Below are positions 424 through 41,500 of a stretch of DNA of 64,000 nt, piece by piece. The position numbers and the translations under genes are program-made. Under the pieces are notes generated by a model that ran no database searches, was not told the origin of the DNA, and worked only from the letters and a program-made list of their open reading frames with translations. Within the stretch, counting starts at the first letter, position 1, and every line of letters starts with the position of its first letter. Source of the stretch: Clostridia bacterium (lineage in GTDB: Bacteria > Bacillota > Clostridia > Christensenellales > CAG-1252); assembly GCA_017394805.1 (NCBI GenBank), contig JAFPXC010000011.1, positions 20,421 to 84,420 on the forward strand, given 5' to 3'.

Positions 424-2364
424 TTATAACACTCTCCTGTCGGTGTTGGGGCTGTAGGTCGCAAAGATTTGGTCGAAATTGGCAAGCACATCGTCGTGTC
501 CCATCGAACTGTCGCGGAAGACGGCATAGAGGGGGTGCATATCGGCGATAGCACGCACTACATCATCGGTGATGTTTGGCTCAAAGCAACACACCAAGTC
601 ATTGCCATCTACACAATAATAGGTAAACGTACGAGGTTGTGCATAGCCACCACCAGCATTATAGATTTTGCTATCATACACGGCGCGGTGTTGAATAGTA
701 CACTCCTTGCGCTCAATCTTGGCGGAGAGGGGTTTGCCGAGGGACAACATCACTTGGAACAACAAGTCCTCATCGGTGCGATCTTCCTTAATGTTGCTTT
801 CCAAGGAGTCCAGCAAAGATTGTTGCGTTTCCACAGGTTTATAATATACATCCTTCATATTGCTGCTATCCACACGCAACACACGGAATCCGATGTCAAG
901 ATTGGATGTAGTCAATGGAGAATCATCTACTATACGTTTACCTGCTCTCCGTATCCTTTCTTCACCTACATCACAAATAGTATGATAACCTACCTTATAT
1001 GCCTCACTTGATTCATCAAATTTTTCGGGAAGTTGAACCATAATAAACTTCCTTTTCCCTCCATCTTCTGCATTCAGTTGCATTACGGCGTGAGCAGTTG
1101 TTGCAGAGCCCGAAAAGAAGTCAAGTATTATATCATCCTGTTTGGTTCCTAAGATACAAAGCATTTTAAGTAACTTAACTGGCTTAGGCGTATCAAAAGG
1201 AGGTTGCTCCAACTCTTGAAAAATCCTGATAATGTCTTTTTTTGCCATATCAGTATGACCATAATCTTCAAAAAGTAGCAAACTTGAAGCTCGACGCCCT
1301 GTTACATCTGATAAAAACTGTTTCACTGCAGGGAAGGCATTACCATCTTTTCCAAAATATATCCTGTTTTCAGCAATTAACTGCTTCATTGTATCAGGCG
1401 CATATACCCAGTGTTTCCCTTTGGGAACATTAAAAACTTTACCTGTAATTGGACTTACAACATCATAATAACCATTTTTGCGCTCACCATTACCAACACA
1501 ATCTCCCGGTTTCCAATTACCTCGAGGATCATTGTCGGGATTCTTATATCTTGCGTTCATTTCAGGTGTACGAGGAAGCATTCCCAATGAGAATACATTT
1601 ATATTTTTGCAATAGCAGAGCACAAATTCATAATCGTTAGAGAAAAACCGAGCTTGATTCTTTGGCGAATAAACCTTTTGCCATCCAAGTTGTGAAATGA
1701 AATTAAACTCTCCAAATATTTCATTGCAAATTTTCTTCAAGTTTTCAATCTCATTTTCATCCATAGAGATAAATATTACCCCATCATCCGCTAACAAATC
1801 TTTGGCAATTCTCAAGCGCGGATAAAGCATGTTAAGCCAATCCGTATGAAAGCGACCATTAGACTCGGTGTTTAGTACCAAACGATTGCCCGCTTCATCA
1901 TATTGTCCACTACGCGAAATATATCCTGCCGTATCCTCTGCAAAGTCATCGGCATACACAAAGTCGTTGCCCGTGTTGTAGGGTGGATCGATGTATATCA
2001 TCTTGATTTTGCCGAGATAGGTTTCTTGTAAGAGTTTCAATACCTCAAGGTTGTCGCCTTCGATATAAAGATTCTCGGTAGTGTCAAAGTTGACGCTACG
2101 CTCCCGCACAGGGCGTAGAGTTGCCGTAGTGGGCGTATTGGCAAGTAGGATAGACTTGCGCTTGTCTGGCCAAGTGAATTGATACCGTTCCTCTTTGTCG
2201 TCTATGAGCATATCACTCATTTCTTGGCGAAGAACATCCCAATCCACCGCCAACACGGGCTTGCCATCACGCAATACCTCGGTCACGGCGTTGGGGAACA
2301 AAGCGCGTATCTTGGCGATATTCGCCTGCACATTATCCATCGAAATCATGTCAATTTTATCCAT
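424..2364 (-). CDS. Beta-class N6-adenine/N4-cytosine DNA methyltransferase (Type III Mod-like)
   Basis: 646 aa. Motif IV IYIDPPYNTG (about aa 124-133) precedes motif I DFFSGSATTAHAV (about aa 416-428), which is the beta-class order. ATG at 2364 with AGGAG upstream. Confidence 0.9.
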   Translation of the reverse strand: MDKIDMISMDNVQANIAKIRALFPNAVTEVLRDGKPVLAVDWDVLRQEMSDMLIDDKEERYQFTWPDKRKSILLANTPTTATLRPVRERSVNFDTTENLYIEGDNLEVLKLLQETYLGKIKMIYIDPPYNTGNDFVYADDFAEDTAGYISRSGQYDEAGNRLVLNTESNGRFHTDWLNMLYPRLRIAKDLLADDGVIFISMDENEIENLKKICNEIFGEFNFISQLGWQKVYSPKNQARFFSNDYEFVLCYCKNINVFSLGMLPRTPEMNARYKNPDNDPRGNWKPGDCVGNGERKNGYYDVVSPITGKVFNVPKGKHWVYAPDTMKQLIAENRIYFGKDGNAFPAVKQFLSDVTGRRASSLLLFEDYGHTDMAKKDIIRIFQELEQPPFDTPKPVKLLKMLCILGTKQDDIILDFFSGSATTAHAVMQLNAEDGGKRKFIMVQLPEKFDESSEAYKVGYHTICDVGEERIRRAGKRIVDDSPLTTSNLDIGFRVLRVDSSNMKDVYYKPVETQQSLLDSLESNIKEDRTDEDLLFQVMLSLGKPLSAKIERKECTIQHRAVYDSKIYNAGGGYAQPRTFTYYCVDGNDLVCCFEPNITDDVVRAIADMHPLYAVFRDSSMGHDDVLANFDQIFATYSPNTDRRVL

Positions 2365-2379
2365 AATAATCTCCTATGG

Positions 2380-3021
2380 TTAGTCGCTGGCATCTGCCAA
2401 AGCAACTTGAAGTTCTTTTAGTTTTGCGTTCAGTTCAAAACGCTTCTTAGCTTGTTTTTCTGCGTCAACAAGGGCTTGCATTTTGGCAATCTCCTTGTGT
2501 AAACGCAGTATAGATTCGTACCTATCGACGAAGTCCTTTGTCGGTTCACCCTCACGGGCGGTGATAGGAATCAACTCGTCAATGATAGCGGTATAAATAT
2601 CGTCAATAGACGCCACCCACGACGGGATAAACACCGATGGAGACTCCGTTTGCCATGAGGTACTATAATACTTGCTACATCTCACGCCCTTTTCAGTACG
2701 CTCTTTGTATGCGCCATAGAGCATAGATTGTCCGGCAATTTGCAACACAAAGACGGTATGCAAATTGATGGCTTTGTCCAATGCCGCTATGAAGGTAGCG
2801 GGGATAGTCTTATCGGCGAGGTCGAGAGCAAATACATAGATTTCTTTGACCTCGCCGACTGTGCGGAAGTTGAGCGTAGCAGGCGACAGTACATTGGTGA
2901 GTGTAACCGACAATACTTGCTTGCCATCGGCTCGCACGCTTTTGTCGGCGTCCATCACCTTATACAGTTCGCTTTGCTTGAACCGTCTATTCACTTCGGT
3001 TTTGCTACTAAACCCCAACAT
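2380..3021 (-). CDS. Hypothetical 213-aa protein between the helicase and the methylase (the position typical of DUF4391)
   Basis: Clean ATG ORF, 1 nt after the helicase stop and 15 nt before the MTase start. I can name no catalytic motif. The DUF4391 label comes from remembered gene context, not from a sequence match. Confidence 0.6.
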   Translation of the reverse strand: MLGFSSKTEVNRRFKQSELYKVMDADKSVRADGKQVLSVTLTNVLSPATLNFRTVGEVKEIYVFALDLADKTIPATFIAALDKAINLHTVFVLQIAGQSMLYGAYKERTEKGVRCSKYYSTSWQTESPSVFIPSWVASIDDIYTAIIDELIPITAREGEPTKDFVDRYESILRLHKEIAKMQALVDAEKQAKKRFELNAKLKELQVALADASD

Positions 3022-3022
3022 A

Positions 3023-6000
3023 CTACTTGATCACCACAAACGAAATCAACTCGAAGTCGTCTAATGCAAACATATTTTGCTGGAATAACACCTTGCTGCC
3101 AACCTTGAATAGCGACTGCAAATCGTTTTCCTCTTTCGCCGCAATGATGCTGGCAATGGCACCATCCAACAACTCGTTGTATTTCTCCATTCTTGCACCA
3201 TCTTTTGTCTCCCGATTGAATCGACGACACAAATCTGCAAGAGGCTCTGCATTGCCTTTGCAAGTAGCGCGTAGCACATCCAACACATACTTGACCTCAA
3301 GATGGTTATAAAGTATGGTGCCATCATCACGGATATACACCAGATAGAAGGGATGCAAGCGGTTTAGCTTGTTGATGTTGATACCATCATTGCGGTTGCA
3401 CAACACAAAAATGGTGCCCGGCTCAATGCCTTTGGACTCGTCGGCAGCGACTACTGCGTGTAGCCCTTTGGTGACACCTTTAGGATCACCAACCTCTTTG
3501 TGATATGCCACCAAGTCCATTACAAAGTCATTCAAACCCAAGTCCGTGATAGAGATATTGCCGTCAACGTCCTCGAGGTCTTGCAGGGTACCCTCTTGCA
3601 ACTTCTTAAGCTGCTCTTTGCGGTAATCCATTTCCTCCGCTTCTTCGGATATGATGTTGTCGTCGGCAGTAGCGGTAGCATTGACGATGGTCATACGAGC
3701 CGACACACGCTTGTTGAGGTTGATGTATTCGTCGAGCGTGATGTCCGGCCAGAAGTTGACCAACTGAATGCTCGTATTGACGCTTCCGATACGGTCAATA
3801 CGACCGAAACGTTGCACAATGCGCACGGGGTTCCAATGGATATCGTAGTTGATACAAATATCGCAGTCTTGCAGGTTTTGACCTTCGGAGATACAATCGG
3901 TACCTATGAGCACATCAATCTCATGTTTTTCGTCGGGATAGATGACCGCTTTTTGCTTGGATATTGGCGAGAAAAGCGTCAACAATCTATCCGTGTTTGG
4001 ACTACCGCCTATGTTGGTGCGGTTGTCGCCACCACCCGATACACGCGCCGTATATATGCCATACTTCGACAGCATATACTCGCTGATGTTTTGATAGAGA
4101 TAATCCGCAGTATCGGCGAAGGCAGAGAAAATCAACACTTTACGGTTGCCTTCATTGAACGGATGCGCCATCTTTTCTTCAATGAGTTGCTTCAATTCGC
4201 AGAGTTTATTATCATCTGCGGGCGTAACACGCAACATTTCGTGATATAGACGATATAGTATATCGGCGTCGTTTTGAATCTCACGGCGCCAAGTGGTAAC
4301 GTCAATGTCCGCCAACTTGATCTCGATAGTCTTGCCGGCAGCTATCTTCTCCAAAGAAAAGTCGTTGTCTTCGTCCGGATCAACGATGGCATATTCGGCA
4401 ACCTCTTTCTTGATGGATGCCGTTGTGTCGCCCGCCAAGAACCTATCAATGGTAGCCAACATCTCTTTATTGATGTCAAGCAATTTTTTGAGCGTGATGC
4501 GGAAGGCGTGAACACTGCTCTCCAAACGTTTCAAGAGCCCAATAGTCATCAACTTCTTCAATCCGCTTTCACGGTGCTTTTGACGCGTCAAGCCTTGTCC
4601 AAGAGCGTTGGCGTTGGGATTCTCTTTAGAAAGATCCACCTCGTACAACTCTTCGTACTCGTCTATACGCGAGGGGAACAGCATCGCCAACGGAGCATAA
4701 ACGCTCATGTTCATCTCCAGCAACAAGTCATAGATTTGTTTATAGGAGAGGATGGCTGGGTTATTCGTCAGCTTGGGGTACTTGGAAACGACAGGCAAAC
4801 GTGTGGGGAATTGCCCAATGTCGGCAGTGCTGTAATACTTCTGAATGTGTTTACGGCTACGTGCGATGGTTACGCTATCCAAGATGATTGAGAAGTCGAT
4901 GTCCAACTTATCAATAAGGTCTTTGGCATGGCGTTCCTCGATAGGCAACTTACTCCAAGCATTGAATACCTTTTGCGCTTGCTGGAAAACAACCTGCACG
5001 TCTTTGTCGGTACCAATCGTTTCGCTCATTTCTTCATAGTTGCCGCAGTATGCCAACAACAACTGATTCTTCAAATCGTTGTAACGGTTGTTGACAGGTG
5101 TGGCAGACAGCATCAAAACCTTTGTCTTAACGCCATCTTGCATGATGCGTTTCATCAAAAAGTCATAGCGCGTGTCCCTATCCTTGCGGGAGGCGTTATT
5201 GTTACGGAAATTGTGACTCTCGTCTATCACCACCAAGTCATAGTTGCCCCAGTTCACGGTAGCAAGGTCTATGCCGCCACTCTTGCCCGAAGTGCGTCCC
5301 AAATCAGTGTGGAATAGCACGTCAAAACGAATACGGTCTTTGTAGAAGATATTAACCTTGGTGTTGCCTTGATACTGCGTCCAGTTCTGCTCCAAGCGCT
5401 TAGGACAAAGCACCAAAATAGACTTGTTGCGCAAGGAATAGTATTGCATGACGGCAAGGGCGGTGAAGGTTTTGCCCAAGCCCACGCTGTCGGCAAGAAT
5501 GCAGCCGTTGTATTTCTCTAGCTTGTTGATGATGCCGACGGCACCATCCTTTTGGAAATTGTACAACTTGTTCCAAATAAGACTGTTCTTGAACCCCGTA
5601 GCCTCGTTGGGCATATAGTCGGAGTCGAGATCTTGCAAAAACTCACGGAAGATGTTGTACAGAATGATGTAGTAAATGAACTCCGGCGAGTTTTCTTTGT
5701 AGCAAGATGAAATGTAATCCACGATGGCAGCAGTGATGTCTTCCACATCATCGTCATTTTGCCAAAGTCGATCGAACTCCGTCAAAAAACTACGGCTATA
5801 ACTAGCGTCGTCGGTCTTAATGATTTGTACCAAGTGGCTACCGTTACTCTCATATCCCAACTCGGCGGTAGTAAAGCCTCCAATAGGCGTATATGTGGTG
5901 CTATGCTCGTGGTTGGTGATATTGACGGAGGTCTGCGTATAGCCCTCGCTCTTGATAGACTTGATTTGCACCTTGTTACGGATCCACTCGGCACATTCAC

Positions 6001-6325
6001 GCGCAATGGCTCTCTGCGTCATTTGGTTGCGCAACCGTATCTCGAAGTCCGTGCCACACAAGGAAGATTCGCTGAACTTAGGGATAAAGAATTCACGCTT
6101 TTCTTTTTTGATATTGTCGGTAATATGAGCATCTACGAAGGTCGGCGTAGTAAAAAGGAAACGCAATTCTTCAATGCCTTCCAACTCTTCACGCAAAGCC
6201 GCGTATGCGTATATGGAAAAACACGATGCCGCTATGCGTACCCTGTCTGCTCCCAGCAACTCCTTTTTGAGGTCGTCGCCCAACAATTTGCTCGTATTAT
6301 TGATGATATCAATCATTGCTTTCAT
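3023..6325 (-). CDS. SNF2-family (SF2) helicase-related protein, 1100 aa
   Basis: Motif I LADSVGLGKTFTALAV, motif II DLVVIDESHNFRN, motif III LMLSATPVNN, motifs V-VI LIGTDCISEGQNLQD...HWNPVRIVQRFGRIDRIGS. The N-terminal ~230 aa and C-terminal ~200 aa are unassigned. The start could be ATG 6325 or ATG 6316. Confidence 0.9.
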   Translation of the reverse strand: MKAMIDIINNTSKLLGDDLKKELLGADRVRIAASCFSIYAYAALREELEGIEELRFLFTTPTFVDAHITDNIKKEKREFFIPKFSESSLCGTDFEIRLRNQMTQRAIARECAEWIRNKVQIKSIKSEGYTQTSVNITNHEHSTTYTPIGGFTTAELGYESNGSHLVQIIKTDDASYSRSFLTEFDRLWQNDDDVEDITAAIVDYISSCYKENSPEFIYYIILYNIFREFLQDLDSDYMPNEATGFKNSLIWNKLYNFQKDGAVGIINKLEKYNGCILADSVGLGKTFTALAVMQYYSLRNKSILVLCPKRLEQNWTQYQGNTKVNIFYKDRIRFDVLFHTDLGRTSGKSGGIDLATVNWGNYDLVVIDESHNFRNNNASRKDRDTRYDFLMKRIMQDGVKTKVLMLSATPVNNRYNDLKNQLLLAYCGNYEEMSETIGTDKDVQVVFQQAQKVFNAWSKLPIEERHAKDLIDKLDIDFSIILDSVTIARSRKHIQKYYSTADIGQFPTRLPVVSKYPKLTNNPAILSYKQIYDLLLEMNMSVYAPLAMLFPSRIDEYEELYEVDLSKENPNANALGQGLTRQKHRESGLKKLMTIGLLKRLESSVHAFRITLKKLLDINKEMLATIDRFLAGDTTASIKKEVAEYAIVDPDEDNDFSLEKIAAGKTIEIKLADIDVTTWRREIQNDADILYRLYHEMLRVTPADDNKLCELKQLIEEKMAHPFNEGNRKVLIFSAFADTADYLYQNISEYMLSKYGIYTARVSGGGDNRTNIGGSPNTDRLLTLFSPISKQKAVIYPDEKHEIDVLIGTDCISEGQNLQDCDICINYDIHWNPVRIVQRFGRIDRIGSVNTSIQLVNFWPDITLDEYINLNKRVSARMTIVNATATADDNIISEEAEEMDYRKEQLKKLQEGTLQDLEDVDGNISITDLGLNDFVMDLVAYHKEVGDPKGVTKGLHAVVAADESKGIEPGTIFVLCNRNDGININKLNRLHPFYLVYIRDDGTILYNHLEVKYVLDVLRATCKGNAEPLADLCRRFNRETKDGARMEKYNELLDGAIASIIAAKEENDLQSLFKVGSKVLFQQNMFALDDFELISFVVIK

Positions 6326-8420: not shown

Positions 8421-10547
8421 CTAGTCCTCGTCACTCGGATCGGAGTAAATGCCCTCTATGAAATAACTGTGTTGCTGATGCAACTCGTCAATGGTTGCCT
8501 TTGTCCCGGCGTATGACGGATAATCGTTCAATCCAACGTTTGTTTTCTTCGCCATTTCTGCAAAGAAGTCTCCAAATGCGTCGGTTGCAAAACGCTCTGC
8601 GTATATCTTTTGGTGCAACAAATAATACTTTTTTCTCTCGGGCTTGGAGTCCATTGTGCCGCGCTCTTTTTCGATGCTCAACGTGCTATACCCAAATCGG
8701 TTTTCTATGCGTTTTTTGTACTTGTACAGCCACGAAACGACGCTCTTCAAGAGGTAGACCAACAACGTGTTGTCGCCTCGTCTAAACCGCATTTTTTCGT
8801 ACAGTCGCCCGAAGCCGTTGTAAGACCAATCGCACAGCATATCTTCTAGCACGAAGAACGGTAGAGCCAACCCATTCGGGGATGTGTCCGTGATAGTGAT
8901 GACGTCGCAGAGGTCGCGTGCGTCGGCGCCCCAAGAGGCTGCGCGTTGCTCGTCGGCAAATACTTTGATGAAGGGGTAATTGTCTACGGTGGCACTATGG
9001 CGGCACATTTTCAACCAAAGGTTGAAGTCGTCGTTTTTCTGATTCGCCTTGTCGTCACCTTTCTTGATTTCTTTGAGTTCCAACATATTTCCGCGCTCCT
9101 TGCCAACTTCGCTGATCACGACGGTGCCAAACTCAAATGAACCAATATTCGGGTTGTCCTCTATCATCTTTTTCCCCAGGCGCAAGGTATCGAAATCGAG
9201 TATGTGAGCATACCGCGATTTGCGTAACCGACGCTTGGGGAAGAAGTTGTTGTACCACAACGGGAAGTTTCCCCCGTCTTGCAAAACAGAGTCCTCTCGT
9301 ATGGCGTAGTTGGATACAAGCAAAGAGGACTGTACCACATAGATGAAATACAGTTGTGCGTAGATCTCCAGCGCGTCGAATAAGGACAGCGTTTTGAGGT
9401 TGTTGTCGTAGCTCATGCCGTATCGCGCCGTGTCGTACCCATACAGTTGCTCAACGTTGTCTTGTCGCCTTCGGTATCGCTGCTCTTTCTTTCGCACCCA
9501 CTCCCTCGCCGTAGCCAAGTTGTAGACTGTATGGTACTCCATACACCGGCGCAACGCCATCTCAAAAGATATCCACGGGAAGAAGGGGAACATCATATCT
9601 ATCGCCACCAACCTTTGGTACGCTTCTTGCCGAAACATAACCGCTTGCGATAACGCCATGTCGGTGATCGCCGTTGTTTTGCGTTTTCCCATACTACCGC
9701 AGGTGAGCGTCACGATAGGCAATTCCTTGATAAAACCGCAATTCTTGGCTTCCATGTGTCGCAAACGTGCATCGGCGATACGCTCTCTCCAACGACAAAA
9801 CACCTTCCAGATATAAGGCAAAAAAAGGTACCATGGGAACCGTAGGAACAGCACTTGCAAGTCCATGATCAATTTGACCGCCTGCATATACAAGCCGCCC
9901 AACTGATACGAGGACGCGAAGTAGAAGTAGTACCCCAAAGCAGATAGCAATATCGCACCGAAGTTGAGGTTGAACGCCCAAATGATGATGTACAAATATA
10001 CCAGATTGGGGTGGTACGTTAGGTACTCTTTGTAGCCGATGGCAAACTGTTTGAACGGCTGATATACCGTGTTAGATAGTTTCTTGAACCGTTTGAGCGG
10101 GCGCGTGTCCTTGTTGTGCTTGGTGTTCGGCTTGCGGTACAGCATTATGATTGCCATTATGACGCCGGCGATAAGCGGGAAGCACATTATCAAGATTTTG
10201 GACGCTCTCTCCATCTTGGAGAGTTCGGCGAGTAGCCAACCCGTTGCATTCGTTTCATCTACCAAAAGCGTGCCGTACTGTTCGGTCTTCGTCTTGAATA
10301 GCGCCCAAGTTTCGGGCCAATTTATTAGCCATTCCATCACTTGGGACTTGTTACCGATGGTGACGTCTAAGTCTATAGGGCGGTGTAGAACGAAATATAG
10401 GTAGTGCTTCAAGCAACTCCAAAAGTCCACGGCAGATTCGGCGAGGCGCAGATAGGATTTGTAATAGACGCTTGCACCCAGCATGATCGCCACAGCAAAG
10501 AAGATAAAGGTTACTGCAATGTTCAATCGTCGCTGTCTTTTATCCAT
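8421..10547 (-). CDS. Membrane-anchored P-loop NTPase (708 aa)
   Basis: The N-terminal ~270 aa have four to five hydrophobic helices. Walker A is CGSMGKRKTT (aa 283-292) and a Walker B-like segment is TVVISEVGKE. I cannot assign a family by eye; Zot/pI-like or FtsK/TcpA-like are both possible. Confidence 0.75.
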   Translation of the reverse strand: MDKRQRRLNIAVTFIFFAVAIMLGASVYYKSYLRLAESAVDFWSCLKHYLYFVLHRPIDLDVTIGNKSQVMEWLINWPETWALFKTKTEQYGTLLVDETNATGWLLAELSKMERASKILIMCFPLIAGVIMAIIMLYRKPNTKHNKDTRPLKRFKKLSNTVYQPFKQFAIGYKEYLTYHPNLVYLYIIIWAFNLNFGAILLSALGYYFYFASSYQLGGLYMQAVKLIMDLQVLFLRFPWYLFLPYIWKVFCRWRERIADARLRHMEAKNCGFIKELPIVTLTCGSMGKRKTTAITDMALSQAVMFRQEAYQRLVAIDMMFPFFPWISFEMALRRCMEYHTVYNLATAREWVRKKEQRYRRRQDNVEQLYGYDTARYGMSYDNNLKTLSLFDALEIYAQLYFIYVVQSSLLVSNYAIREDSVLQDGGNFPLWYNNFFPKRRLRKSRYAHILDFDTLRLGKKMIEDNPNIGSFEFGTVVISEVGKERGNMLELKEIKKGDDKANQKNDDFNLWLKMCRHSATVDNYPFIKVFADEQRAASWGADARDLCDVITITDTSPNGLALPFFVLEDMLCDWSYNGFGRLYEKMRFRRGDNTLLVYLLKSVVSWLYKYKKRIENRFGYSTLSIEKERGTMDSKPERKKYYLLHQKIYAERFATDAFGDFFAEMAKKTNVGLNDYPSYAGTKATIDELHQQHSYFIEGIYSDPSDED

Positions 10548-10689
10548 AATACCCTCCCATAATTGCTCTTGCTATTTCGGTGGTATCGGTAATGGATGCT
10601 GCCTTCTTACCCGTATAAATGAGATAAGAAAGCAGTAGAGCCATTATCAATACGCCCAAAACAGCCAATGCTCGTTTCAGGCTTTTCAT
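10540..10689 (-). CDS. Small membrane protein (49 aa), absent from the ORF track
   Basis: Manual translation: MKSLKRALAVLGVLIMALLLSYLIYTGKKAASITDTTEIARAIMGGYYG. GGAGG lies 7 nt upstream of ATG 10689. Its end overlaps the NTPase ATG, which suggests translational coupling. Confidence 0.5.
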   Translation of the reverse strand: MKSLKRALAVLGVLIMALLLSYLIYTGKKAASITDTTEIARAIMGGYYG

Positions 10690-15429: not shown

Positions 15430-15750
15430 TTATTTGTTGTCGGCATTCTTGCCTTTACCCTTGACGGGTTTGCCGGCGGCTTCGGCAGCTGCGGCTGCTT
15501 TCTCGGCTTGGGCGGCAGCCTCTTGTGCTTCCTGCTCGCGCTTTTGCTTCAGCCATTGGAAAAAGTGGTACATGCCCACGTGATCGTGATTGGCCTCGAG
15601 ATAACCGGCGCGAACGCCTTTTTCGTACTCGGTGAGGTCTTGACCTGCCTTGTCGCCTTCGAGATGCTTGCCTTTCTTCTTCTCGGCGTACATCTGTTCC
15701 CCAGCCTTGTGGGGATTCTTCCAACGGTTCCTGTAATTGTATCTACCCAT
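15430..15750 (-). CDS. Basic, Ala/Lys-tailed 106-aa protein
   Basis: I moved the start to ATG 15750 (MGRYNYRNRW...), which has AAGGAG 8 nt upstream. The track ORF extends 87 codons further across repeat c1 (see findings). Confidence 0.6.
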   Translation of the reverse strand: MGRYNYRNRWKNPHKAGEQMYAEKKKGKHLEGDKAGQDLTEYEKGVRAGYLEANHDHVGMYHFFQWLKQKREQEAQEAAAQAEKAAAAAEAAGKPVKGKGKNADNK

Positions 15751-15929
15751 AGTAGTCTCCTTTGCCCGTAACCAGATAGCACAGTGATTTGAGTTGATGC
15801 CCGTAAGTGCCGTTAGCAAAGCGTGATGGTATGATATTAAGTTGTAGAGTTGTGCCGTCTGAAACTGATACGACGTTCCGTCATGGGCGATTGGGGAGTG
15901 GCCACTCTTACCTTGCAAGCCGCAATCGA

Positions 15930-16080
15930 GAAAGGGGCGTTTCGTCAAGCACATCTTCAGTTTAGACCTTGGAAGTGTAAAAACGCCATAGACTGAATGG
16001 GTGGGAATCATACCCGATTAACACAGTTTTTGAATGGCGAAAAACCAAATTGAACGTAGTGGAATGCACTAGCACTTCAC
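15930..16080 (-). repeat. Repeat copy c1 (the family is c1, c2, c3)
   Basis: It shares an 18-mer TGTAAAAACGCCATAGAC (15976-15993) and a 12-mer AATCATACCCGA (16006-16017) with c2. It shares a 20-mer GCCATAGACTGAATGGGTGG (15985-16004) with the reverse complement of c3. The distal box CACTAGCACTTCA (16067-16079) matches c2 at 18662-18674. Confidence 0.8.
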
Positions 16081-16216
16081 TACACGATTGTCTCAAAACG
16101 AGCCTGAATTGAATGGCGGTTATGCAGCACGAAAACCGCACCGAAAATCCATGATTTTGTATCGAATGAAAGAAAAATCACGATTGAACTAAGGATAAAA
16201 TTAAATCAACTATTTG

Positions 16217-16244
16217 TTGACTTGCACATAAAAAGTGGTATAAT
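16217..16244 (+). promoter_or_regulatory. Consensus extended -10 promoter of the antiporter gene
   Basis: TTGACT (16217-16222), a 16-nt spacer ending in TGg, then TATAAT (16239-16244). Confidence 0.7.
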
Positions 16245-16250
16245 GGTGAT

Positions 16251-16355
16251 AAGGAAATGATGCACTTCCTTCCTCGATAGAGGAGAACCGCCCACTGCGG
16301 GGCTGATGGCGTCTACACGATTGGCGATTGCCAAAAGTGTTGGCGTCGTTTTTTT
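16251..16355 (+). promoter_or_regulatory. 5' leader with alternative pairings and an intrinsic terminator (attenuator or candidate riboswitch)
   Basis: Hairpins AAGGAA/TTCCTT (16251-16271) and CCTC-GATA-GAGG (16272-16283). GCCAA (16330-16334) can pair either with the upstream TTGGC (16321-16325) or with the downstream TTGGC (16340-16344). The downstream pairing extends to about 9 bp and is followed by TTTTTTT (16349-16355). Confidence 0.5.
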
Positions 16356-16368
16356 ATGGAGGTGTGTT

Positions 16369-17568
16369 ATGATGTTGTTATCGTTCGGCTTGATACTATT
16401 GGTCGGGTTTGTCGTGGGGTGGCTGCTCAACAAGATACGTGTACCGGGCTTGGTGGGCATGATCGTGGTCGGACTGGTTTTTGGACCCTATTGCCTCAAT
16501 ATCATTGATTCTTCTATCTTGGATATTTCGTCGGAGTTGCGCCAAATTGCTTTGGTGATTATTCTCACGCGTTCGGGGTTAAATCTCGACCTTAAAAAAT
16601 TGCTGTCCGTAGGCACCCCCGCCTTGCTGATGAGCTTTATTCCCGCCACCTTTGAGATGGTGGGCACCATGCTCGGCGCACACTATTTGCTAAACCTTAC
16701 GTGGGTTGAAAGCCTGTTGCTCGGTGCCGTGTTGGGTGCCGTGTCACCCGCTGTCGTTTCCCCGCGCATGATCAAACTCATTGAGGAAAAACGCGGTGCC
16801 GAGCACGCCGTTCCCTCTATCGTATTGGCGGGGGCATCGGTCGATGACATATATACAATCACGTTGTTTTACGCCTTCCTCGGTATCGTTCAAAACCACA
16901 AAGCCGACGCGTTGTCCATTGCCCTTGTGCCCGTTTCTATCTTACTTGGCATAGCATTGGGTATTGTGGTAGGTGTGTGCCTCTTGTTTCTCTTCCGCAA
17001 AACGCATCTGCCACTCGCCGCCAAAATGCTTATTCTTTTATCCGTTTCCCTATTGATGGTAGGGCTGGAAACCCTAGTCAAACCGTGGATAGATATATCC
17101 TCTCTACTGGGCGTGATGGTAGTGGGTATGATCCTCGCTTTCAAACATAAAGATACGGCGGAGGAGTTATCCAACGGATATAAGTCGCTGTGGACGTTTT
17201 TCGAGGTGTTATTGTTTGTGTTGATGGGTGCAGCCGTGGATTTTCGGCTTATCACATCGGTTGGTTGGCAAGCGGTGGTCGTCTTACTCATTGGTTTGTC
17301 TTTCCGCACCGTCGGCGTAATCGTGTGTATGCTGTTTGCCAAAGCCACTTGGCGAGAGCGTTTTTTTGCCGTATTCGCCTATTTGCCCAAGGCAACAGTG
17401 CAAGCCTCAATAGGGGGTATTGCGCTGTCTCTCGGATTAGACTGTGGCAGTGTGATATTACTTGTCTCGGTATTGGCTATCGTAGTCACGGCACCTATCG
17501 GCGCTTTTTTAATCGACTTCTTTGGAAAGCGGTGGCTTGTGCCTATACAAGAAACACCAGATAAATAA
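16369..17568 (+). CDS. Cation:proton antiporter (Na+/H+ exchanger family)
   Basis: 399 aa, polytopic, with about 11-12 hydrophobic helices. The N-terminus LLVGFVVGWLLNKIRVPGLVGMIVVGLVFGP is typical of CPA-type exchangers. I moved the start to ATG 16369 (GGAGG 6 nt upstream) because the track start at 16306 lies inside the leader terminator. Confidence 0.8.
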   Translation: MMLLSFGLILLVGFVVGWLLNKIRVPGLVGMIVVGLVFGPYCLNIIDSSILDISSELRQIALVIILTRSGLNLDLKKLLSVGTPALLMSFIPATFEMVGTMLGAHYLLNLTWVESLLLGAVLGAVSPAVVSPRMIKLIEEKRGAEHAVPSIVLAGASVDDIYTITLFYAFLGIVQNHKADALSIALVPVSILLGIALGIVVGVCLLFLFRKTHLPLAAKMLILLSVSLLMVGLETLVKPWIDISSLLGVMVVGMILAFKHKDTAEELSNGYKSLWTFFEVLLFVLMGAAVDFRLITSVGWQAVVVLLIGLSFRTVGVIVCMLFAKATWRERFFAVFAYLPKATVQASIGGIALSLGLDCGSVILLVSVLAIVVTAPIGAFLIDFFGKRWLVPIQETPDK

Positions 17569-17631
17569 AAATGGGATAACTAGCGGAATCACTAATTATC
17601 CCATTGGCGGGGACGCATTACCCCGAAGAAT

Positions 17632-17892
17632 TTACGCTACATATTCACGCGTTTGCATTACGGTGTGAACCCGTCGGCCGTCTTTACGTCGGCGATCTGC
17701 AAACATGGAATTGTAGAACTTGTCGCGTTTCGTGGTACGTGCGAAGAACACATCTCGGCTAACCACCATCGGCGTTGTGTCGTCGTCATACATAATCTCA
17801 ATGTACTGACAGACGATAAAATGCTTGGTGCGATATATGTTATTCGGTGCGTCTTTGTCGTAGTCCAACTCGCTCAAATCTACGCTTACCAT
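17632..17892 (-). CDS. Hypothetical protein (86 aa)
   Basis: ORF 12 nt downstream of the regulator-like gene. No motif. Confidence 0.5.
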   Translation of the reverse strand: MVSVDLSELDYDKDAPNNIYRTKHFIVCQYIEIMYDDDTTPMVVSRDVFFARTTKRDKFYNSMFADRRRKDGRRVHTVMQTREYVA

Positions 17893-17904
17893 AGGCTACC
17901 TCCT

Positions 17905-18213
17905 TTATACATTGTTGTCTTCACTGTGATCGGACAAGTATTGGCATAACTGTTGACAAAACTTGGAAATGCAACTTGTCGAAACACAAAACCGGTCAGC
18001 GAGTACCTCTTGGCTCTGGTCGGTCAAATAGTACTCATAGTAGATATGCAACAATCTCAACGGCGCGTTTTTCATCAACGCATCATAATACGCTTTCAAT
18101 AACTTCAATCTCTCACTGCGCACATCATCATTATGCGCATCAAAAACATCTCGATAGGAATGGTAATACTTGATTTCCATCAACTCATCTCTAACTTGCT
18201 TTTTACTCTTCAT
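17905..18213 (-). CDS. Sigma region-4-like / DUF1492-like phage transcriptional regulator (102 aa)
   Basis: The C-terminal segment SQEVLADRFCVSTSCISKFCQQL resembles a sigma-70 region 4.2 helix-turn-helix. The Tyr-rich N-terminal helix region resembles small phage late regulators. This is from memory only. Confidence 0.5.
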   Translation of the reverse strand: MKSKKQVRDELMEIKYYHSYRDVFDAHNDDVRSERLKLLKAYYDALMKNAPLRLLHIYYEYYLTDQSQEVLADRFCVSTSCISKFCQQLCQYLSDHSEDNNV

Positions 18214-18333
18214 TTCCGTGTCCGCCTCCTTATAAAAATCACCGTACCCCCTTTGGTTGTATAATGCAGGATGGTCTACATCGGTGGGGCGAACACCAAC
18301 AACTACGCGGAGTATTTTTCTCGTGTGTATATG

Positions 18334-18361
18334 ATTATACCATATTTACATTGAATGTCAA
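18334..18361 (-). promoter_or_regulatory. Consensus extended -10 promoter for the regulator-like gene
   Basis: The minus strand reads TTGACA (18361-18356), a 16-nt spacer ending in TGg, then TATAAT (18339-18334). Confidence 0.65.
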
Positions 18362-18398
18362 GTATAAATTACAACTTATCGTTGTATTTTTCGTACAC

Positions 18399-18521
18399 TT
18401 ATTGACCTAACAGCCGTTTGATGTACGCCTTGTAACATGCCAGCGCTATAATCATTTTCTCTTGGTCGGACAATTCCTTCCACTCGGGACTATGTAACGA
18501 TATAATAACGAATTCATCCAT
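18399..18521 (-). CDS. Small 40-aa ORF (MDEFVIISLHSPEWKELSDQEKMIIALACYKAYIKRLLGQ)
   Basis: AAAGGAGGTG lies 6 nt upstream of ATG 18521. The track ORF extends 28 codons upstream across repeat c2. Confidence 0.45.
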   Translation of the reverse strand: MDEFVIISLHSPEWKELSDQEKMIIALACYKAYIKRLLGQ

Positions 18522-18675
18522 CGCGTTCACCTCCTTTGCCTTTGATACTTCCATTGTAGAACTTGGGACTGTAAAAACGCCATAGACGGAATGCACGCAA
18601 ATCATACCCGACTGTACTACTTTCGGACGGCACTGTCACTTGACTTGAATTGACTAGTAAACACTAGCACATCAA
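18522..18675 (-). repeat. Repeat copy c2
   Basis: Core at 18563-18611. It is direct with c1 and inverted relative to c3: TTGGGACTGTA at 18563-18573 matches TACAGTCCCAA at 19004-19014, and GCCATAGAC at 18579-18587 matches GTCTATGGC at 18990-18998. Confidence 0.8.
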
Positions 18676-18860
18676 AACACAAGAGAGATTATTCGCCTTG
18701 CGTCTTGGCAGTCTACCACAGTCCGCCCCGCTTCGCAATGGGTGGGTAGATTTTTTCTCTAAAGCGAAATAATCTACTGTTCCCCCTGTATCCTTGCTCG
18801 CGGTTCGGCCGGTGGTGCCTCGCCTGTGCCGCTTGGCAAATTTATATATAAGGAGTCCAA

Positions 18861-19034
18861 ATGATGATTCGAGATAAACCAAATAGAACAGTAAATCGAA
18901 AACAAACAGATACTCAACTGACAGTTCATTCCAATGGATTCATCTTCATTCCAAAACAGGTGCAATCCGATGGGTTTTCCACCCATTCAGTCTATGGCAA
19001 AAGTACAGTCCCAAAGGGTACCATAGAAGTATAA
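18861..19034 (+). CDS. Small 57-aa ORF, possibly SpoVT/AbrB-like, absent from the ORF track
   Basis: Manual translation: MMIRDKPNRTVNRKQTDTQLTVHSNGFIFIPKQVQSDGFSTHSVYGKSTVPKGTIEV. AAGGAG lies 5 nt upstream. The GFIFIPKQV segment resembles the GxxxIPKxx strand of AbrB-type folds (weak). Its 3' end contains repeat c3. Confidence 0.45.
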   Translation: MMIRDKPNRTVNRKQTDTQLTVHSNGFIFIPKQVQSDGFSTHSVYGKSTVPKGTIEV

Positions 19035-19059
19035 ACACAAACCACAAGGAGGTAACAAT
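18968..19059 (+). repeat. Repeat copy c3
   Basis: CCACCCATTCAGTCTATGGC (18979-18998) is the exact reverse complement of c1 at 15985-16004. The similarity to c2 continues downstream (TACCATAGAAGTATAAAC versus TACAATGGAAGTATCAAA). Confidence 0.8.
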
Positions 19060-19464
19060 ATGAAAAAAGCCGTCATTTATGCAAGGTATCGTGGAGATGC
19101 CAGCATACCCGCACAACCGTATATCGAGGAACAAATTGAAAAGTGCATGTGCTATGCGCAAGAACACGATATACAAGTCAAAAGAGTCTATACCGAGATA
19201 GAAGTATGGGGAGTACCCGCACAACCGAGAGTAATCCGCGAACAAATGATATTGGACAGCGCAAGTCACGAATGGGATACCGTACTCGTTACCGATATGG
19301 ACAAGCTCGCAAGAAAACGCACTGACGCTTGGGAGTGCAAACACCGTTTAGAAAAGAACGGAGTCACCATCGAGCCCATCACTCAAAAGAACATTGCCGA
19401 GGAAATCATCATCGAACAAATCTTGATTGGCATGGAAAAGTATGAAGCAAGGAGGAAGAAATAA
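19060..19464 (+). CDS. Resolvase-domain-only serine-recombinase paralog lacking the canonical nucleophile context
   Basis: 134 aa. AVIYARYRGDAS stands where the neighbouring recombinase has AVIYARYSSESQ. DMDKLARK stands where the neighbour has KLDRFSRN. The stop overlaps the next ATG (TAATG). Confidence 0.7.
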   Translation: MKKAVIYARYRGDASIPAQPYIEEQIEKCMCYAQEHDIQVKRVYTEIEVWGVPAQPRVIREQMILDSASHEWDTVLVTDMDKLARKRTDAWECKHRLEKNGVTIEPITQKNIAEEIIIEQILIGMEKYEARRKK

Positions 19465-21011
19465 TGCAAACAGCGGTAATCTATGCTCGCTACAGCAGCG
19501 AATCGCAAAACGAACAGTCCATAGAAGGACAGTTGCGCGTGTGTAACGCGTACGCGGAGGCGCATCATCTATTGGTTCTCAATCAATATATCGACCGCGC
19601 TATGACAGGCAGAAATGACGCCAGACCGGAATTCCAAAAGATGCTCGCGGACAGCAAAGACCACAAATTCGAGGTGGTGCTGGTCTACAAGTTGGATAGG
19701 TTCTCCCGTAACAAATACGAATCGGTCATGCACAAGAAAACGTTGAAAGACAACGGAGTGATCGTCGTATCGGCGACAGAGAACATACCCGACACACCCG
19801 AGGGCGTTATCTTGGAATCGCTTTTGGAAGGCATGAACCAATACTACTCGATGGAGTTGTCCCAAAAAGTACACCGTGGCTTGACCGAGAGTTATCTCAA
19901 AGGCAACTTTACCGGCGGGCGCATTCGCTACGGCTATAGAGTCGAAGGCAAAAAGGTGTACATCGTCGAAGAAGAGGCAGCCATTATCCGTGAGGTGTAT
20001 TTCAAATACGCACAGGGATATACCGTGCCCGACATTCTTCTTTCCCTCAATAATCGCAACCTACGAAACCGAGAGGGCAACTCCTTCCACGTGAAATACC
20101 TATACGATATGCTTCACTATCCCAAATATCGGGGGTTGGTAGAACACGATGGGGTTGTCTACGACAACATATTCCCGCGTATCATAAGCGACGAGATATG
20201 GGAAAAAGTCTCACAACGACACCAAGAAGACGCGTTGGGCGTCGGCGTCAAAACAAGCAGCAACTATCTATTGTCCGGCAAGATGTACTGCGCTCATTGC
20301 TTTCATCCGCTAATCGGCATCTCTGCGCATGGTCGGCACTGCAAATACTACTATTATGCCTGTAATCGGGGCCGTCGCGTACCGAATGACTGCGAAGCGA
20401 GACCGCTCGACAGAGATACGATACACGACATAGTATTCAACACGACCTGCGCTCTCGTTGCCGACAATAATATGATCGCCGAGCTTGCTCATCTCATTAT
20501 GCAAGAGCACAACCGAGCCGTGAAAGACGACTACACGTTGCAATCGCTGGAGAGCAGGTTGCAAACAGTAAAGCGTGCGATGGAGAATTTGTTGCGTGCC
20601 ATTGAGTCGGGCATCATCACCGAGCAAACGAAAGCGCGTATGGAAGAACTGCAAGAACAAGCACAACGCTTGCAGCTGGAAATCAACGTGGAGAAGATAC
20701 GGGTACGCCCCGACCTCGAAACCATTGATGTCGTGGACTTCCTGCGATCGCAATTCTTTGGCGAAACGCAAGACGACGAGATACGAAAAGCGTTGCTGAA
20801 AACTTTTATCTACACGATAATACGCGATGACAACAAGATAACGATAGTGTACAACTTCCGCAATGATTACAACCCGACGAAAATCAAGCGAGAGGAATTG
20901 GAAACGCTACTACATATAGCAGAACAAAAAGGGGTGGTCTTCAAAAAGGCCACCTACTTTTTTACTCCAGACCGCTTCGGAGTACAAATATCCTACAATC
21001 CGTCGGCGTAA
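19464..21011 (+). CDS. Large serine recombinase (515 aa)
   Basis: N-terminal resolvase domain with YARYSSESQ and VYKLDRFSRN. It also has a recombinase domain, a Cys-rich zinc-ribbon region (CAHC...C...C) and a C-terminal coiled coil. Confidence 0.9.
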   Translation: MQTAVIYARYSSESQNEQSIEGQLRVCNAYAEAHHLLVLNQYIDRAMTGRNDARPEFQKMLADSKDHKFEVVLVYKLDRFSRNKYESVMHKKTLKDNGVIVVSATENIPDTPEGVILESLLEGMNQYYSMELSQKVHRGLTESYLKGNFTGGRIRYGYRVEGKKVYIVEEEAAIIREVYFKYAQGYTVPDILLSLNNRNLRNREGNSFHVKYLYDMLHYPKYRGLVEHDGVVYDNIFPRIISDEIWEKVSQRHQEDALGVGVKTSSNYLLSGKMYCAHCFHPLIGISAHGRHCKYYYYACNRGRRVPNDCEARPLDRDTIHDIVFNTTCALVADNNMIAELAHLIMQEHNRAVKDDYTLQSLESRLQTVKRAMENLLRAIESGIITEQTKARMEELQEQAQRLQLEINVEKIRVRPDLETIDVVDFLRSQFFGETQDDEIRKALLKTFIYTIIRDDNKITIVYNFRNDYNPTKIKREELETLLHIAEQKGVVFKKATYFFTPDRFGVQISYNPSA

Positions 21012-21085: not shown

Positions 21086-21215
21086 ACAGTCTAGCACATT
21101 GAGCCACCACTGCCAAAGGGCAATTCTTGTCCCCTTGGGAGTTCCCCCTTTGTTGTGGCGTCTCAACGCGCTCGGGGGCGCCTGTACCGAAAACCATTCG
21201 GAAGGAGGATTAGAT

Positions 21216-21539: not shown

Positions 21540-21609
21540 AGTGCTTGCGTTTACTAGCAAATGCTAGCAAATCATAGTACAACCATATCGCTACACGAAC
21601 CGCTTGAAA

Positions 21610-21650: not shown

Positions 21651-21796
21651 TGGTGCGTGCAACAACCTATGCCTATAGAATAAAGTGATAGTGAAGTGCT
21701 GATAAAGTGCGACCGAAATGCTACAGTTTTCCGATGACGTATTGCCCATTTCAAGTACACTGACAGCGCGTTCCGCCAAAAAGCCTAAAGCATAAT

Positions 21797-22153
21797 CACC
21801 CTTGGGGCACCACCAAGCAACCTTTGCAACCGAAGGTTGCTTTTTTTATGCCCCGCGACGGTCTGCGCTCTGCGCAAGACGGTGCGAGGGCATAAAAAAG
21901 CGAGTGCCTTTAGGCACGGAAGGTTGCTTGGTGGTGACGGAACCCTTGGGGCAAGGCAGGACAGTCTTGAGCGTAGCGAAAGGCTTGTACTGCTATCACG
22001 GTTATCCTTGTACGAATGCAATGAGCGTAAAATACGATGGTGCAGGCCCCCACTGGGGAGGGACAGGACGGTTACGAGCGTAGCGAGGAACTCGCCCTGC
22101 TATCACGGATATCCTTTCGCAAGACGGTGCGAAAGCATAAAAAAAGGACTCGC
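21797..22153. repeat. Degenerate direct repeats and dense dyad symmetry in the non-coding junction
   Basis: Two 53-nt units at 21957-22009 and 22064-22116 are about 75% identical. GCAAGACGGTGCGA(G/A)(G/A)GCATAAAAAA occurs at 21874 and 22119. ACCCTTGGGGCA occurs at 21797 and 21941. A 17-bp inverted repeat joins 21809-21825 and 21920-21936. A terminator-like hairpin at 21816-21841 is followed by a T-run. Confidence 0.7.
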
Positions 22154-41228: not shown

Positions 41229-41500
41229 TGCTGCGCTATGTGGGGAGCTAGCGGTGCCCTGTAACTTGCAATCCGCTACAGCAAGACAGAACGCTTATCG
41301 AGGCATTTAGTATGGGAGGCTGACTTCGGCAAGGAGTGTTGATACTTGGGTCTTGTGCAACGACGCACTGCGAACCATGTCAGGGCTTGACGGCAGCAGC
41401 ATTAAACAGACCGTGTTGTGTGCCACGAGGTAGCTCAAGAGGAGCCACCTACCGCGGGATCGCTCCGGTGCTACTTGTCGGAATAAGTGCGCAGTATTCA
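41229..41500 (+). ncRNA. ffs: Signal recognition particle RNA, long (Alu-domain-containing) form
   Basis: The Alu-domain string GCGGTGCCCTGTAACTTGCAATCCGC matches the remembered Bacillus scRNA. The S-domain segments GTCAGGGC..GGCAGCAGC and GTGTGCCACGAGGTAGCT align with E. coli 4.5S GUCAGGUCCGGAAGGAAGCAGC and GUGUGCCGGGAUGUAGCU. The 5' CTGCGC (41231-41236) pairs with the 3' GCGCAG (41489-41494). The ends are approximate. Confidence 0.8.

Follow-up and report, generated by a model that had tools for sequence, protein, structure and literature searches.

The window analyzed here (the whole 64,000-nt stretch of contig JAFPXC010000011.1 from a Clostridia bacterium) carries an integrated element that encodes a rolling-circle replication protein (Rep) and a large serine recombinase, and in this element a short sequence occurs three times, as copies c1, c2, and c3. 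We consider it probable, if only just, that c1-c3 are three paralogous transcription-initiation modules (promoter plus operator), each heading one outward-facing unit of the element. This reading is based on an invariant TAnnnT hexamer at a fixed distance from a conserved box, on the short distance to the ribosome-binding sites, and on conservation that is confined to one side of the box. If it holds, the module provides a regulatory map for a family of integrative elements in gut Clostridia with a rolling-circle Rep, a large serine recombinase, and cargo (a fluoride-riboswitch-controlled transporter in the element of the window), and it indicates where the three main transcripts are expected to start and which 8 bp and which hexamer are of interest. 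A single trans-acting factor is predicted, whose identity would explain how the element stays silent or gets induced. The motif is new; the design is well known in mobile elements, and no new class of mechanism is proposed.

Three copies of one module in the window

An earlier note on this DNA described a triplicated element with one copy in front of each transcription unit. All the exact strings that it quoted were found at their positions and none is expected by chance; the triplication is real. c1 and c2, described as direct repeats with a distal box, form a 60-nt direct repeat (15958-16017 versus 18552-18611; 82% identity, offset 2594 nt). The repeat contains TGTAAAAACGCCATAGAC at 15976-15993 and 18570-18587 (no further match with up to three mismatches in the window, 0.05 expected) and AATCATACCCGA, exact at 16006-16017 and 18600-18611; the distal box CACTAGCAC is exact at 16067-16075 and 18662-18670, at an offset equal to that of the repeat. 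c3 is inverted, as the note had it, and the strings it was said to share were located, among them the 20-mer GCCATAGACTGAATGGGTGG at 15985-16004 (+) and 18979-18998 (-), with 0 expected, and the 11-mer TACAGTCCCAA common to c2 and c3. The string GCCATAGAC occurs four times in the window against 0.34 expected, and three of the four occurrences lie inside c1-c3. The formal alignment that had been proposed as a check was run with the copies oriented toward their downstream genes; it shows a block common to all three, and the similarity of c2 and c3 toward the downstream gene, which the note had also seen, is carried as far as the ribosome-binding site. A composite 34-nt pattern, TCTATGGY-N5-T-N-CA-N11-TANNNT, has three matches in the 64 kb (0.02 expected), only at 15959-15992 (-), 18553-18586 (-), and 18991-19024 (+). 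The parts of the three copies are as follows.

15959-15992, minus strand: c1 core, with the box TCTATGGC at 15992-15985, a 20-nt spacer, and the -10-like hexamer TAAACT at 15964-15959 (match to the composite pattern)
15993-16075, minus strand: c1 upstream part, with a flank common to c2 and c3 (CCCACCCATTCAG, TCGGGTATGATT, TTCAAAAAC) and the distal box CACTAGCAC at 16067-16075
18553-18586, minus strand: c2 core, with the box TCTATGGC at 18586-18579, a 20-nt spacer, and the -10-like hexamer TACAAT at 18558-18553 (match to the composite pattern)
18587-18670, minus strand: c2 upstream part, with the distal boxes ACTAGTAA / CACTAGCAC at 18652-18670
18946-18990, plus strand: c3 upstream flank, with TTCCAAAAC ... 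CCACCCATTCAG common to c1
18991-19027, plus strand: c3 core, with the box TCTATGGC at 18991-18998, a 20-nt spacer, and the -10-like hexamer TACCAT at 19019-19024 (match to the composite pattern)

All three copies have the identical orientation relative to the gene that follows, which bears out another claim of the note. The end of the hexamer lies 31 nt (c2) or 35 nt (c3) from the ATG, with AAGGAGG in between. The statement that c1 precedes the structural operon stands with one qualification: the first structural gene starts at 15750, so that the c1 hexamer is followed by a 208-nt leader that separates it from the operon. In c3 only, an inverted second box, CCATAGA at 19021-19027, takes in part of the hexamer and creates a 37-bp dyad (TCTATGG-N23-CCATAGA); c1 and c2 have no second arm. 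The dyad is also found in lineages L028 and L032, and 5-6 of the 7 arm positions are kept in L036 and L040.

Conservation of the modules in related elements

The search of relatives for further copies, also proposed earlier, covered seven lineages whose recombinases are 57-100% identical to that of the window, about 25 related contigs, and 17 modules. Close relatives (L014-L027, 94-100% identical to the window) were found by look-up of the exact 102-aa and 134-aa proteins, and the further lineages by a recombinase homologue search followed by contig look-ups. The lineages are listed here with their recombinase identity to the window.

L028 and L032 (80%): L028 a full element; L032 c2, c3, and the recombinase side only
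L036 (65%): full element
L034 (65%): mini-element with a 42-aa gene, Rep, and recombinase
L039 (60%): 40-aa gene, 101-aa gene, Rep, and recombinase
L040 and L041 (57%): otherwise unrelated cargo, restriction-modification genes included
L042 and L044 (48-49%): without the module
c1 orthologues: in L028, L036, L047, and all close relatives
c2 orthologues: in L028, L032, L034, L036, and L039

A module precedes the recombinase in all lineages down to 57% recombinase identity, another precedes the 40-aa gene in all lineages that have this gene, and a third precedes the operon leader in all lineages with the structural operon. Complete relatives have exactly three modules each, and the positions and orientations recur in diverged lineages. 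The mini-elements of L034 (6290-9551) and L039 (2253-5790) consist of no more than the recombinase, the structured region described below, the modules, Rep, and the 40-aa gene, to which L039 adds the 101-aa gene; they are possibly satellites dependent on a full element. A genome scan returned only relatives of about 53% identity, without the module, and a metagenome scan with a 25-mer of the c1 leader returned one L036-like contig, and none from a new lineage. Phage records held no close DNA match. IMG/VR held no relatives of Rep or of the 708-aa protein of the operon, and the nine matches of a 16-mer core search there were all judged to be chance, with dissimilar flanks. The distant relative L001 (MT835493) shares the gene order and has no c-type box and no triplication.

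Module anatomy and proposed mode of initiation

The first seven positions of the 8-bp box, TCTATGG(C/T), read TCTATGG in most of the 17 modules; the two copies of L034 have TCTCTGG, and L039 has ACTATGG and ACAATGG. The variants thus travel together within an element (TCTCTGG twice in L034, an A-initial box twice in L039). The spacer between box and hexamer is exactly 20 nt in 17/17 modules and includes a nearly constant T-N-CA. In the hexamer TAnnnT, positions T1, A2, and T6 are invariant in all 17, and 4-6 of the 6 positions match TATAAT. The distance from the hexamer to the ATG in c2- and c3-type modules is 31-37 nt and contains a Shine-Dalgarno sequence. The hexamer depends on the position class and not on the lineage: TAAACT in c1 (3/3), TACAAT, TAAAAT, or TATAAT in c2 (TATAAT itself in L039 c2), and TACCAT, TAGCAT, or TACGAT in c3. 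Hexamer identity is 0.89 within a class versus 0.67 between classes, a difference reached by none of 5000 permutations. The 12-nt flank upstream of the box shows the other pattern, with an identity of 0.60 within an element versus 0.41 between lineages (0/5000 permutations). Conservation is one-sided, as c1 illustrates across lineages: the upstream side of the box has unrelated sequence, identity in the spacer is about 70%, and beyond the hexamer it is 96-99%.

These observations agree with the earlier suggestion of shared operator/promoter/leader modules, since the copies keep their positions and orientations in diverged lineages, the 20-nt spacing is fixed, T1/A2/T6 are invariant, the start-codon distances fit a short leader, the hexamers are position-specific, and the flanks are lineage-specific. 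Judged as sigma-70 promoters, the modules have the -10 hexamer and lack the -35: the sequence at the -35 position (GGCGTT, GGCAAA, or GGCTTT) is not close to TTGACA, and no sigma-70-type candidate with at least 9/12 consensus matches was found at a common relative position across the modules. The host uses the canonical promoter type, as indicated by the perfect consensus promoters near the modules. Consensus sequences for sigma-54, sporulation, and ECF sigma factors were compared by eye and rejected, as their spacings do not fit.

We propose that RNA polymerase would initiate about 7 nt beyond the hexamer, which would put the hexamer at -12 to -7 and the box at about -40 to -33, in the place of the -35 hexamer. 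The lack of a canonical -35 at a fixed position suggests that a DNA-binding protein reading the box and the lineage-specific upstream flank may gate initiation or be needed for it. A flank that is lineage-specific and shared between copies, together with co-varying box variants, fits one trans-acting factor; the pattern would look the same under gene conversion among the copies. Given the same site in all three copies, the recombinase, the 40-aa/regulator/Rep unit, and the structural operon would be switched together. The position-specific hexamers suggest a graded strength, with c2 closest to consensus and c3 weakest, and the inverted c3 box overlapping the hexamer suggests tighter control of the recombinase.

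Candidates for the proposed factor that would read the box

The candidate factors, in order, are a 102-aa helix-turn-helix (HTH) protein that has a predicted constitutive promoter, the large serine recombinase, and a host factor. The structure model of the 102-aa protein is all-helical with a C-terminal HTH (pLDDT 77). The protein has about 60 remote relatives of about 100 aa, and the profile of this family weakly matches SigF region 4 (E = 0.013); 5 of 59 members match Pfam Sigma70_r4, and matches to Sigma70_r4 or HTH_3 are few. The window protein itself has no Pfam match and a sub-threshold YlxM-like match in NCBIfam. By its domains it does not belong to the sigma-70 family, being too short for region 2 and having a region-4-like HTH that is only weakly detected. 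A comparison of its recognition helix with the box for co-variation found both conserved. The large serine recombinase is the sole element-encoded protein present in all sampled module-bearing lineages. The 40-aa protein of the element was also considered as the binder; it is kept in six lineages and is very small.

We consider it unlikely that the box replaces the -35 and is read by a protein of the element. The reader would be the 102-aa region-4-like mini-protein, standing in for sigma region 4 at the -35, or else the large serine recombinase in the role of a transcription factor. If true, one protein would couple excision/integration, replication, and structural-gene expression; the lineage-specific flanks would amount to "immunity types"; and a resident full element would act in trans to drive the factor-less mini-elements L034 and L040.

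Several points weigh against the promoter/operator reading or its proposed factor. The transcript start sites are predicted from sequence. The c1 leader could be so highly conserved for a function of its DNA (for example as a replication origin) and not for an RNA starting at c1. In a fold search the similarity of the 102-aa protein to sigma region 4 was not significant (best E = 0.6), and its gene is absent from L034 and L040, both of which bear modules, so that it cannot be a universal cis-encoded factor. The terminal arm of the recombinase, TGGTGCCCCAAGGGTGATTATGC (21812-21790), contains no box, which leaves binding of the box by the recombinase unsupported; the right-end arms of the window, L028, and L036 likewise have no box. 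A 10-nt resemblance between the c3 centre and the terminal arm of the element (CCCAAGGGT) in the window is not reproduced in L036 and was treated as chance. Finally, a weak -35-like (A/T)TG(A/C)CA is found about 45 nt upstream of the box in 7/11 modules, and the hexamer 17 nt away from it is poorly conserved; transcription could therefore begin upstream, in which case the box would be a downstream operator.

The last point leads to a rival that we regard as unlikely, in which the regulatory role is unchanged and the geometry differs. A weak sigma-A-type promoter of each unit would occupy the stretch from about 45 to about 15 nt before the box. Transcripts would start shortly before the segment from box to hexamer, which would work as a roadblock or repressor operator, bound by a dimer at the c3 dyad and keeping the element silent while it is integrated. 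The -35-like sequence does stand at a fixed position, and the hexamer 17 nt from it always ends in T, 15 nt before the box; a promoter scan flagged TTCAAA-16-TATGAT just upstream of c1; the c3 dyad TCTATGG-N-CCATAGA is operator-like; and a constitutively expressed HTH protein would fit a maintenance repressor. However, the upstream hexamer is poorly conserved (A2 in 4/11 modules, and TATGAT changed to TGTGAT in c2 of close relatives), while the downstream TAnnnT is invariant in 17/17 modules, and the absence of any candidate with at least 9/12 matches at a common position applies to this promoter as well.

Alternative roles of the copies

The earlier note also offered the copies as recombination sites of the adjacent recombinases. 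As res-, hix-, or att-like sites, c2 and c3 would invert 0.4 kb and c1 and c2 would delete 2.6 kb, with inversion or deletion junctions expected inside GCCATAGA. The repeats do adjoin two genes of the recombinase family, c2/c3 are inverted and c1/c2 direct, the 37-bp c3 dyad has a size typical of serine-recombinase sites, and the module is restricted to one recombinase subclade, accompanying that recombinase in the otherwise unrelated L040. Nevertheless, this role is not supported by the comparison and we consider it very unlikely. All of the approximately 25 contigs from the seven lineages are colinear, with the same order and orientation and no deletion or inversion at the copies; a single orientation was found in nine distinct close relatives and six further lineages, where assemblies report the majority arrangement only and rare inversion or deletion events could escape. 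The breakpoints of a cargo polymorphism are at 16178 and 17630, not at c1 or c2. Dyad symmetry is missing from both of these copies, conservation is confined to the gene side of the box, and the terminal arm of the recombinase is unlike the box. The 134-aa recombinase-family protein has Arg in place of the nucleophile serine, and its gene is absent from L014, L015, L028, and L036, all of which retain all copies.

Action of the shared sequence as RNA is extremely unlikely in our view. The sequence would then be a 5'-leader motif (for example a target of an RNA-binding protein, or in c3 a UCUAUGG...CCAUAGA hairpin) in longer transcripts started upstream. The c3 box and its inverted copy could indeed pair, and in 5/7 lineages a ribosome-binding site and a start codon follow the structured region upstream of c3, so that the recombinase may have a long leader running through c3. 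Yet the c3 arms show no compensatory change and the right arm does not follow the box changes in L034 and L039, c1 and c2 have no pairing partner, no Rfam family matches, and the upstream open reading frame (ORF) is frameshifted in L014/L015, absent in L028, and in another frame in L034. This 57-aa ORF (18861-19034, overlapping c3) is for the same reason probably not a gene, and was rejected as a regulator; the earlier note had proposed the 57-aa protein for binding assays.

We give practically no credence to the copies being functionless leftovers of a segmental duplication or a MITE-like insertion. The 82% identity of c1 and c2 over 60 nt could be read in this way, and the inverted c2/c3 around a structured 0.4-kb segment superficially resemble terminal inverted repeats. 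But the arrangement is kept where neighboring genes are only 60-80% identical, invariant positions stand amid otherwise randomized flanks, the similarity runs outward into the ribosome-binding sites with no stop at a terminal boundary, and the region between c2 and c3 is present in every lineage, mini-elements included. The MITE/terminal-inverted-repeat reading of c2/c3 was rejected on the last two grounds, the inner segment being native to all lineages. An origin of c1 as a by-product of cargo insertion was also rejected, because L020, which has no cargo cassette, retains c1.

Comparison with known systems

Read as promoter/operator modules, c1-c3 resemble the multi-promoter operator regulons of plasmids and phages, such as the omega repressor heptads at the copS, delta, and omega promoters of pSM19035, the KorA/KorB operators of IncP plasmids, and the CI operators of temperate phages. 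In these systems, as here, one short motif stands before several units of a mobile element in the same orientation to the promoter, and the site at the most sensitive gene is duplicated or symmetric (here c3); the module flanks differ between lineages as phage immunity types do. Like a shared operator, the putative site has a fixed position before several predicted promoters, is absent elsewhere in the window, and covaries within the element. The motif here is different, with a single core box per module and no heptad array, and no homologue of Omega, KorA/B, or CI was found for the c1-c3 element. The second class to consider is that of activator-dependent promoters with a good -10 and no -35 (class II activation, or the middle/late promoters of phages, with those of the T4 MotA box as an example). 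The modules share with them a conserved -10-like hexamer, a box centred near -36 replacing the -35, the setting in a mobile element, and a predicted joint switching-on. Unlike those activators, the candidate factor here is a 102-aa protein, weakly sigma-region-4-like and with no region 2, which is absent in some module-bearing relatives.

In Tn3 and gamma-delta, the resolvase sites of res lie between divergent tnpA and tnpR and repress both promoters. The present element likewise has repeated sites between divergent genes beside a serine-recombinase gene, and the module is tied to one recombinase subclade. However, its recombinase is a large serine recombinase with a terminal arm without the box, the dyad is present in one of three copies, one copy lies 3 kb away before another operon, and no recombination products were seen in related contigs. 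Compared with serine-recombinase sites in general, the copies have no products between them in those contigs and no resemblance to the element-end arms, and the 37-bp dyad is limited to c3. Invertible promoter switches (Hin/hix, fimS, and the RecV type of Clostridioides difficile) also have inverted repeats around a segment of a few hundred bp beside a recombinase gene. Such switches are found in both orientations in natural populations; c2/c3 are in a single orientation in every assembly and lineage compared, their repeats extend into ribosome-binding sites, and the flanked segment is a conserved structured region and no promoter cassette.

The c1 leader, the structured region, and the CTAG boxes

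Three further non-coding features accompany the modules.

15751-15958, minus strand: c1 leader, 208 nt, non-coding, ultra-conserved
18694-18852, plus strand: structured region, GC-rich, about 160 nt, between the divergent c2 and c3
16067-16075, 18652-18670, 21089-21097, and 21552-21570, plus strand: CTAG[C/T]A boxes

Identity of the c1 leader between lineages is 96-99%, against 74-83% for the gene next to it, and L028 has a 1-nt indel in the leader, which argues against coding. The leader motif CTACAACTTAATAT, retained even in the distant L001, may resemble the nick sites of phiX174-type Rep proteins. The leader may be a Rep nick site/origin or a structured leader RNA. A leader repeat, CTG(T/C)GCTATC..GG(T/C)TAC(A)CGGG(C/T)AAAGGAG, is found at 15752-15790 of the window before the structural operon, and in L001 at 10028-10063 and 10625-10666, before a 90-aa gene and the operon. 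The structured region (18694-18852) is almost invariant in close relatives, alignable across six lineages, and present even in mini-elements. It folds into a long nested hairpin with 38 predicted pairs, most of them invariant and 3 with compensatory changes, and its G-U pairs favor the plus strand. It may be an origin or the RNA leader of the recombinase unit. Rfam 15 covariance models run over 15700-19100 (E up to 5) matched the fluoride riboswitch only.

The tetranucleotide CTAG is underrepresented about 14-fold in the window, with 18 occurrences versus about 246 expected. The region nevertheless contains six CTAG[C/T]A boxes (ACTAGCAC-like), which makes this a real motif. Each is on the plus strand; they stand some 75 nt upstream of the boxes of c1 and c2, behind the recombinase gene, and at 21552-21570. 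Similar boxes are present in L028, L032, L034, and L036, sometimes in tandem with a 10-11 nt period, and the pair at 21552-21570 is conserved in L028 and L032. The possible partial fourth copy that the earlier note placed at 21556-21585 turned out to be this pair of CTAGCA distal-type boxes, a separate motif and not a copy of the core.

Gene map and ends of the element

The genes, promoters, and cargo of the element in the window are as follows.

15750 down to 7361, minus strand: long operon, ending with Rep and passing through genes without a family match
15430-15750, minus strand: first gene of the operon, 106 aa
7361-8434, minus strand: Rep (PF23343, Replication-associated protein ORF2/G2P)
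16178-17630, plus strand: cargo cassette, inserted between c1 and the 86-aa gene, with no c copies at its borders
16217-16244, plus strand: cargo promoter, canonical consensus
16244-16322, plus strand: fluoride riboswitch (RF01734)
16369-17568, plus strand: Na+/H+-exchanger-family gene, followed by a terminator
17632-17892, minus strand: 86-aa protein
17905-18213, minus strand: 102-aa helix-turn-helix protein
18361-18334, minus strand: promoter of the 102-aa/86-aa genes, TTGACA-16-TATAAT, 12/12 consensus match
18399-18521, minus strand: 40-aa gene, with a 31-nt leader containing AAGGAGG (leader and gene span 18399-18552)
19060-19464, plus strand: 134-aa resolvase-domain gene, Arg at the nucleophile position
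19464-21011, plus strand: large serine recombinase, 515 aa, in the unit headed by c3 (19060-21011)

The 708-aa membrane protein of the minus-strand operon has a Walker-A-like GSMGKRKT, as judged by eye in the consensus sequence. The 40-aa protein is kept in six lineages with the motifs I-I-I-V-G-x-P-x-W ... EQK ... C-Y, and its gene is always the first after c2 and divergent from the recombinase gene; it may act as a directionality factor or as a small regulator. The 134-aa protein is 32% identical to the N-terminus of the large recombinase and has YARYR where the latter has YARYS. Its gene is absent from L014 and L015 (95% identical relatives, in which 19083-19446 is missing) and from all other lineages; in L014/L015, c3 directly precedes the large recombinase. 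In L020 exactly 16178-17630 is missing, a short terminator stands in its place, and c1 is retained, which indicates a presence/absence polymorphism of 1.45 kb. The cassette thus came in later, and its breakpoints have no relation to the repeats.

Relatives inserted elsewhere are homologous up to 21812 and no further, which places the right end of the element there, with the end sequence ...CCCTTGGGGCACCA (21790-21812). The left end was not found in the window. The elements of the window, L014, and L015 are inserted in three different places, each directly after a host terminator hairpin, which suggests a serine recombinase with loose target choice. The string GCCCCAAGGGT of the element end has a second occurrence at 21942-21952. 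Just outside the element, 21947-22116 is a repeat with a 107-nt period (63-nt units, 75% identical), and L016, otherwise 99.8% identical, has one unit fewer. To the left of Rep, 424-6325 encodes an N6/N4 methylase, a DUF4391 protein, and an SNF2-type helicase, followed in identical contigs by a DUF2971 protein and a ResIII/endonuclease; taken together, these genes look like a restriction or defence cluster, which may or may not belong to the element. A large bacterial SRP RNA is located at 41231-41494 of the window.

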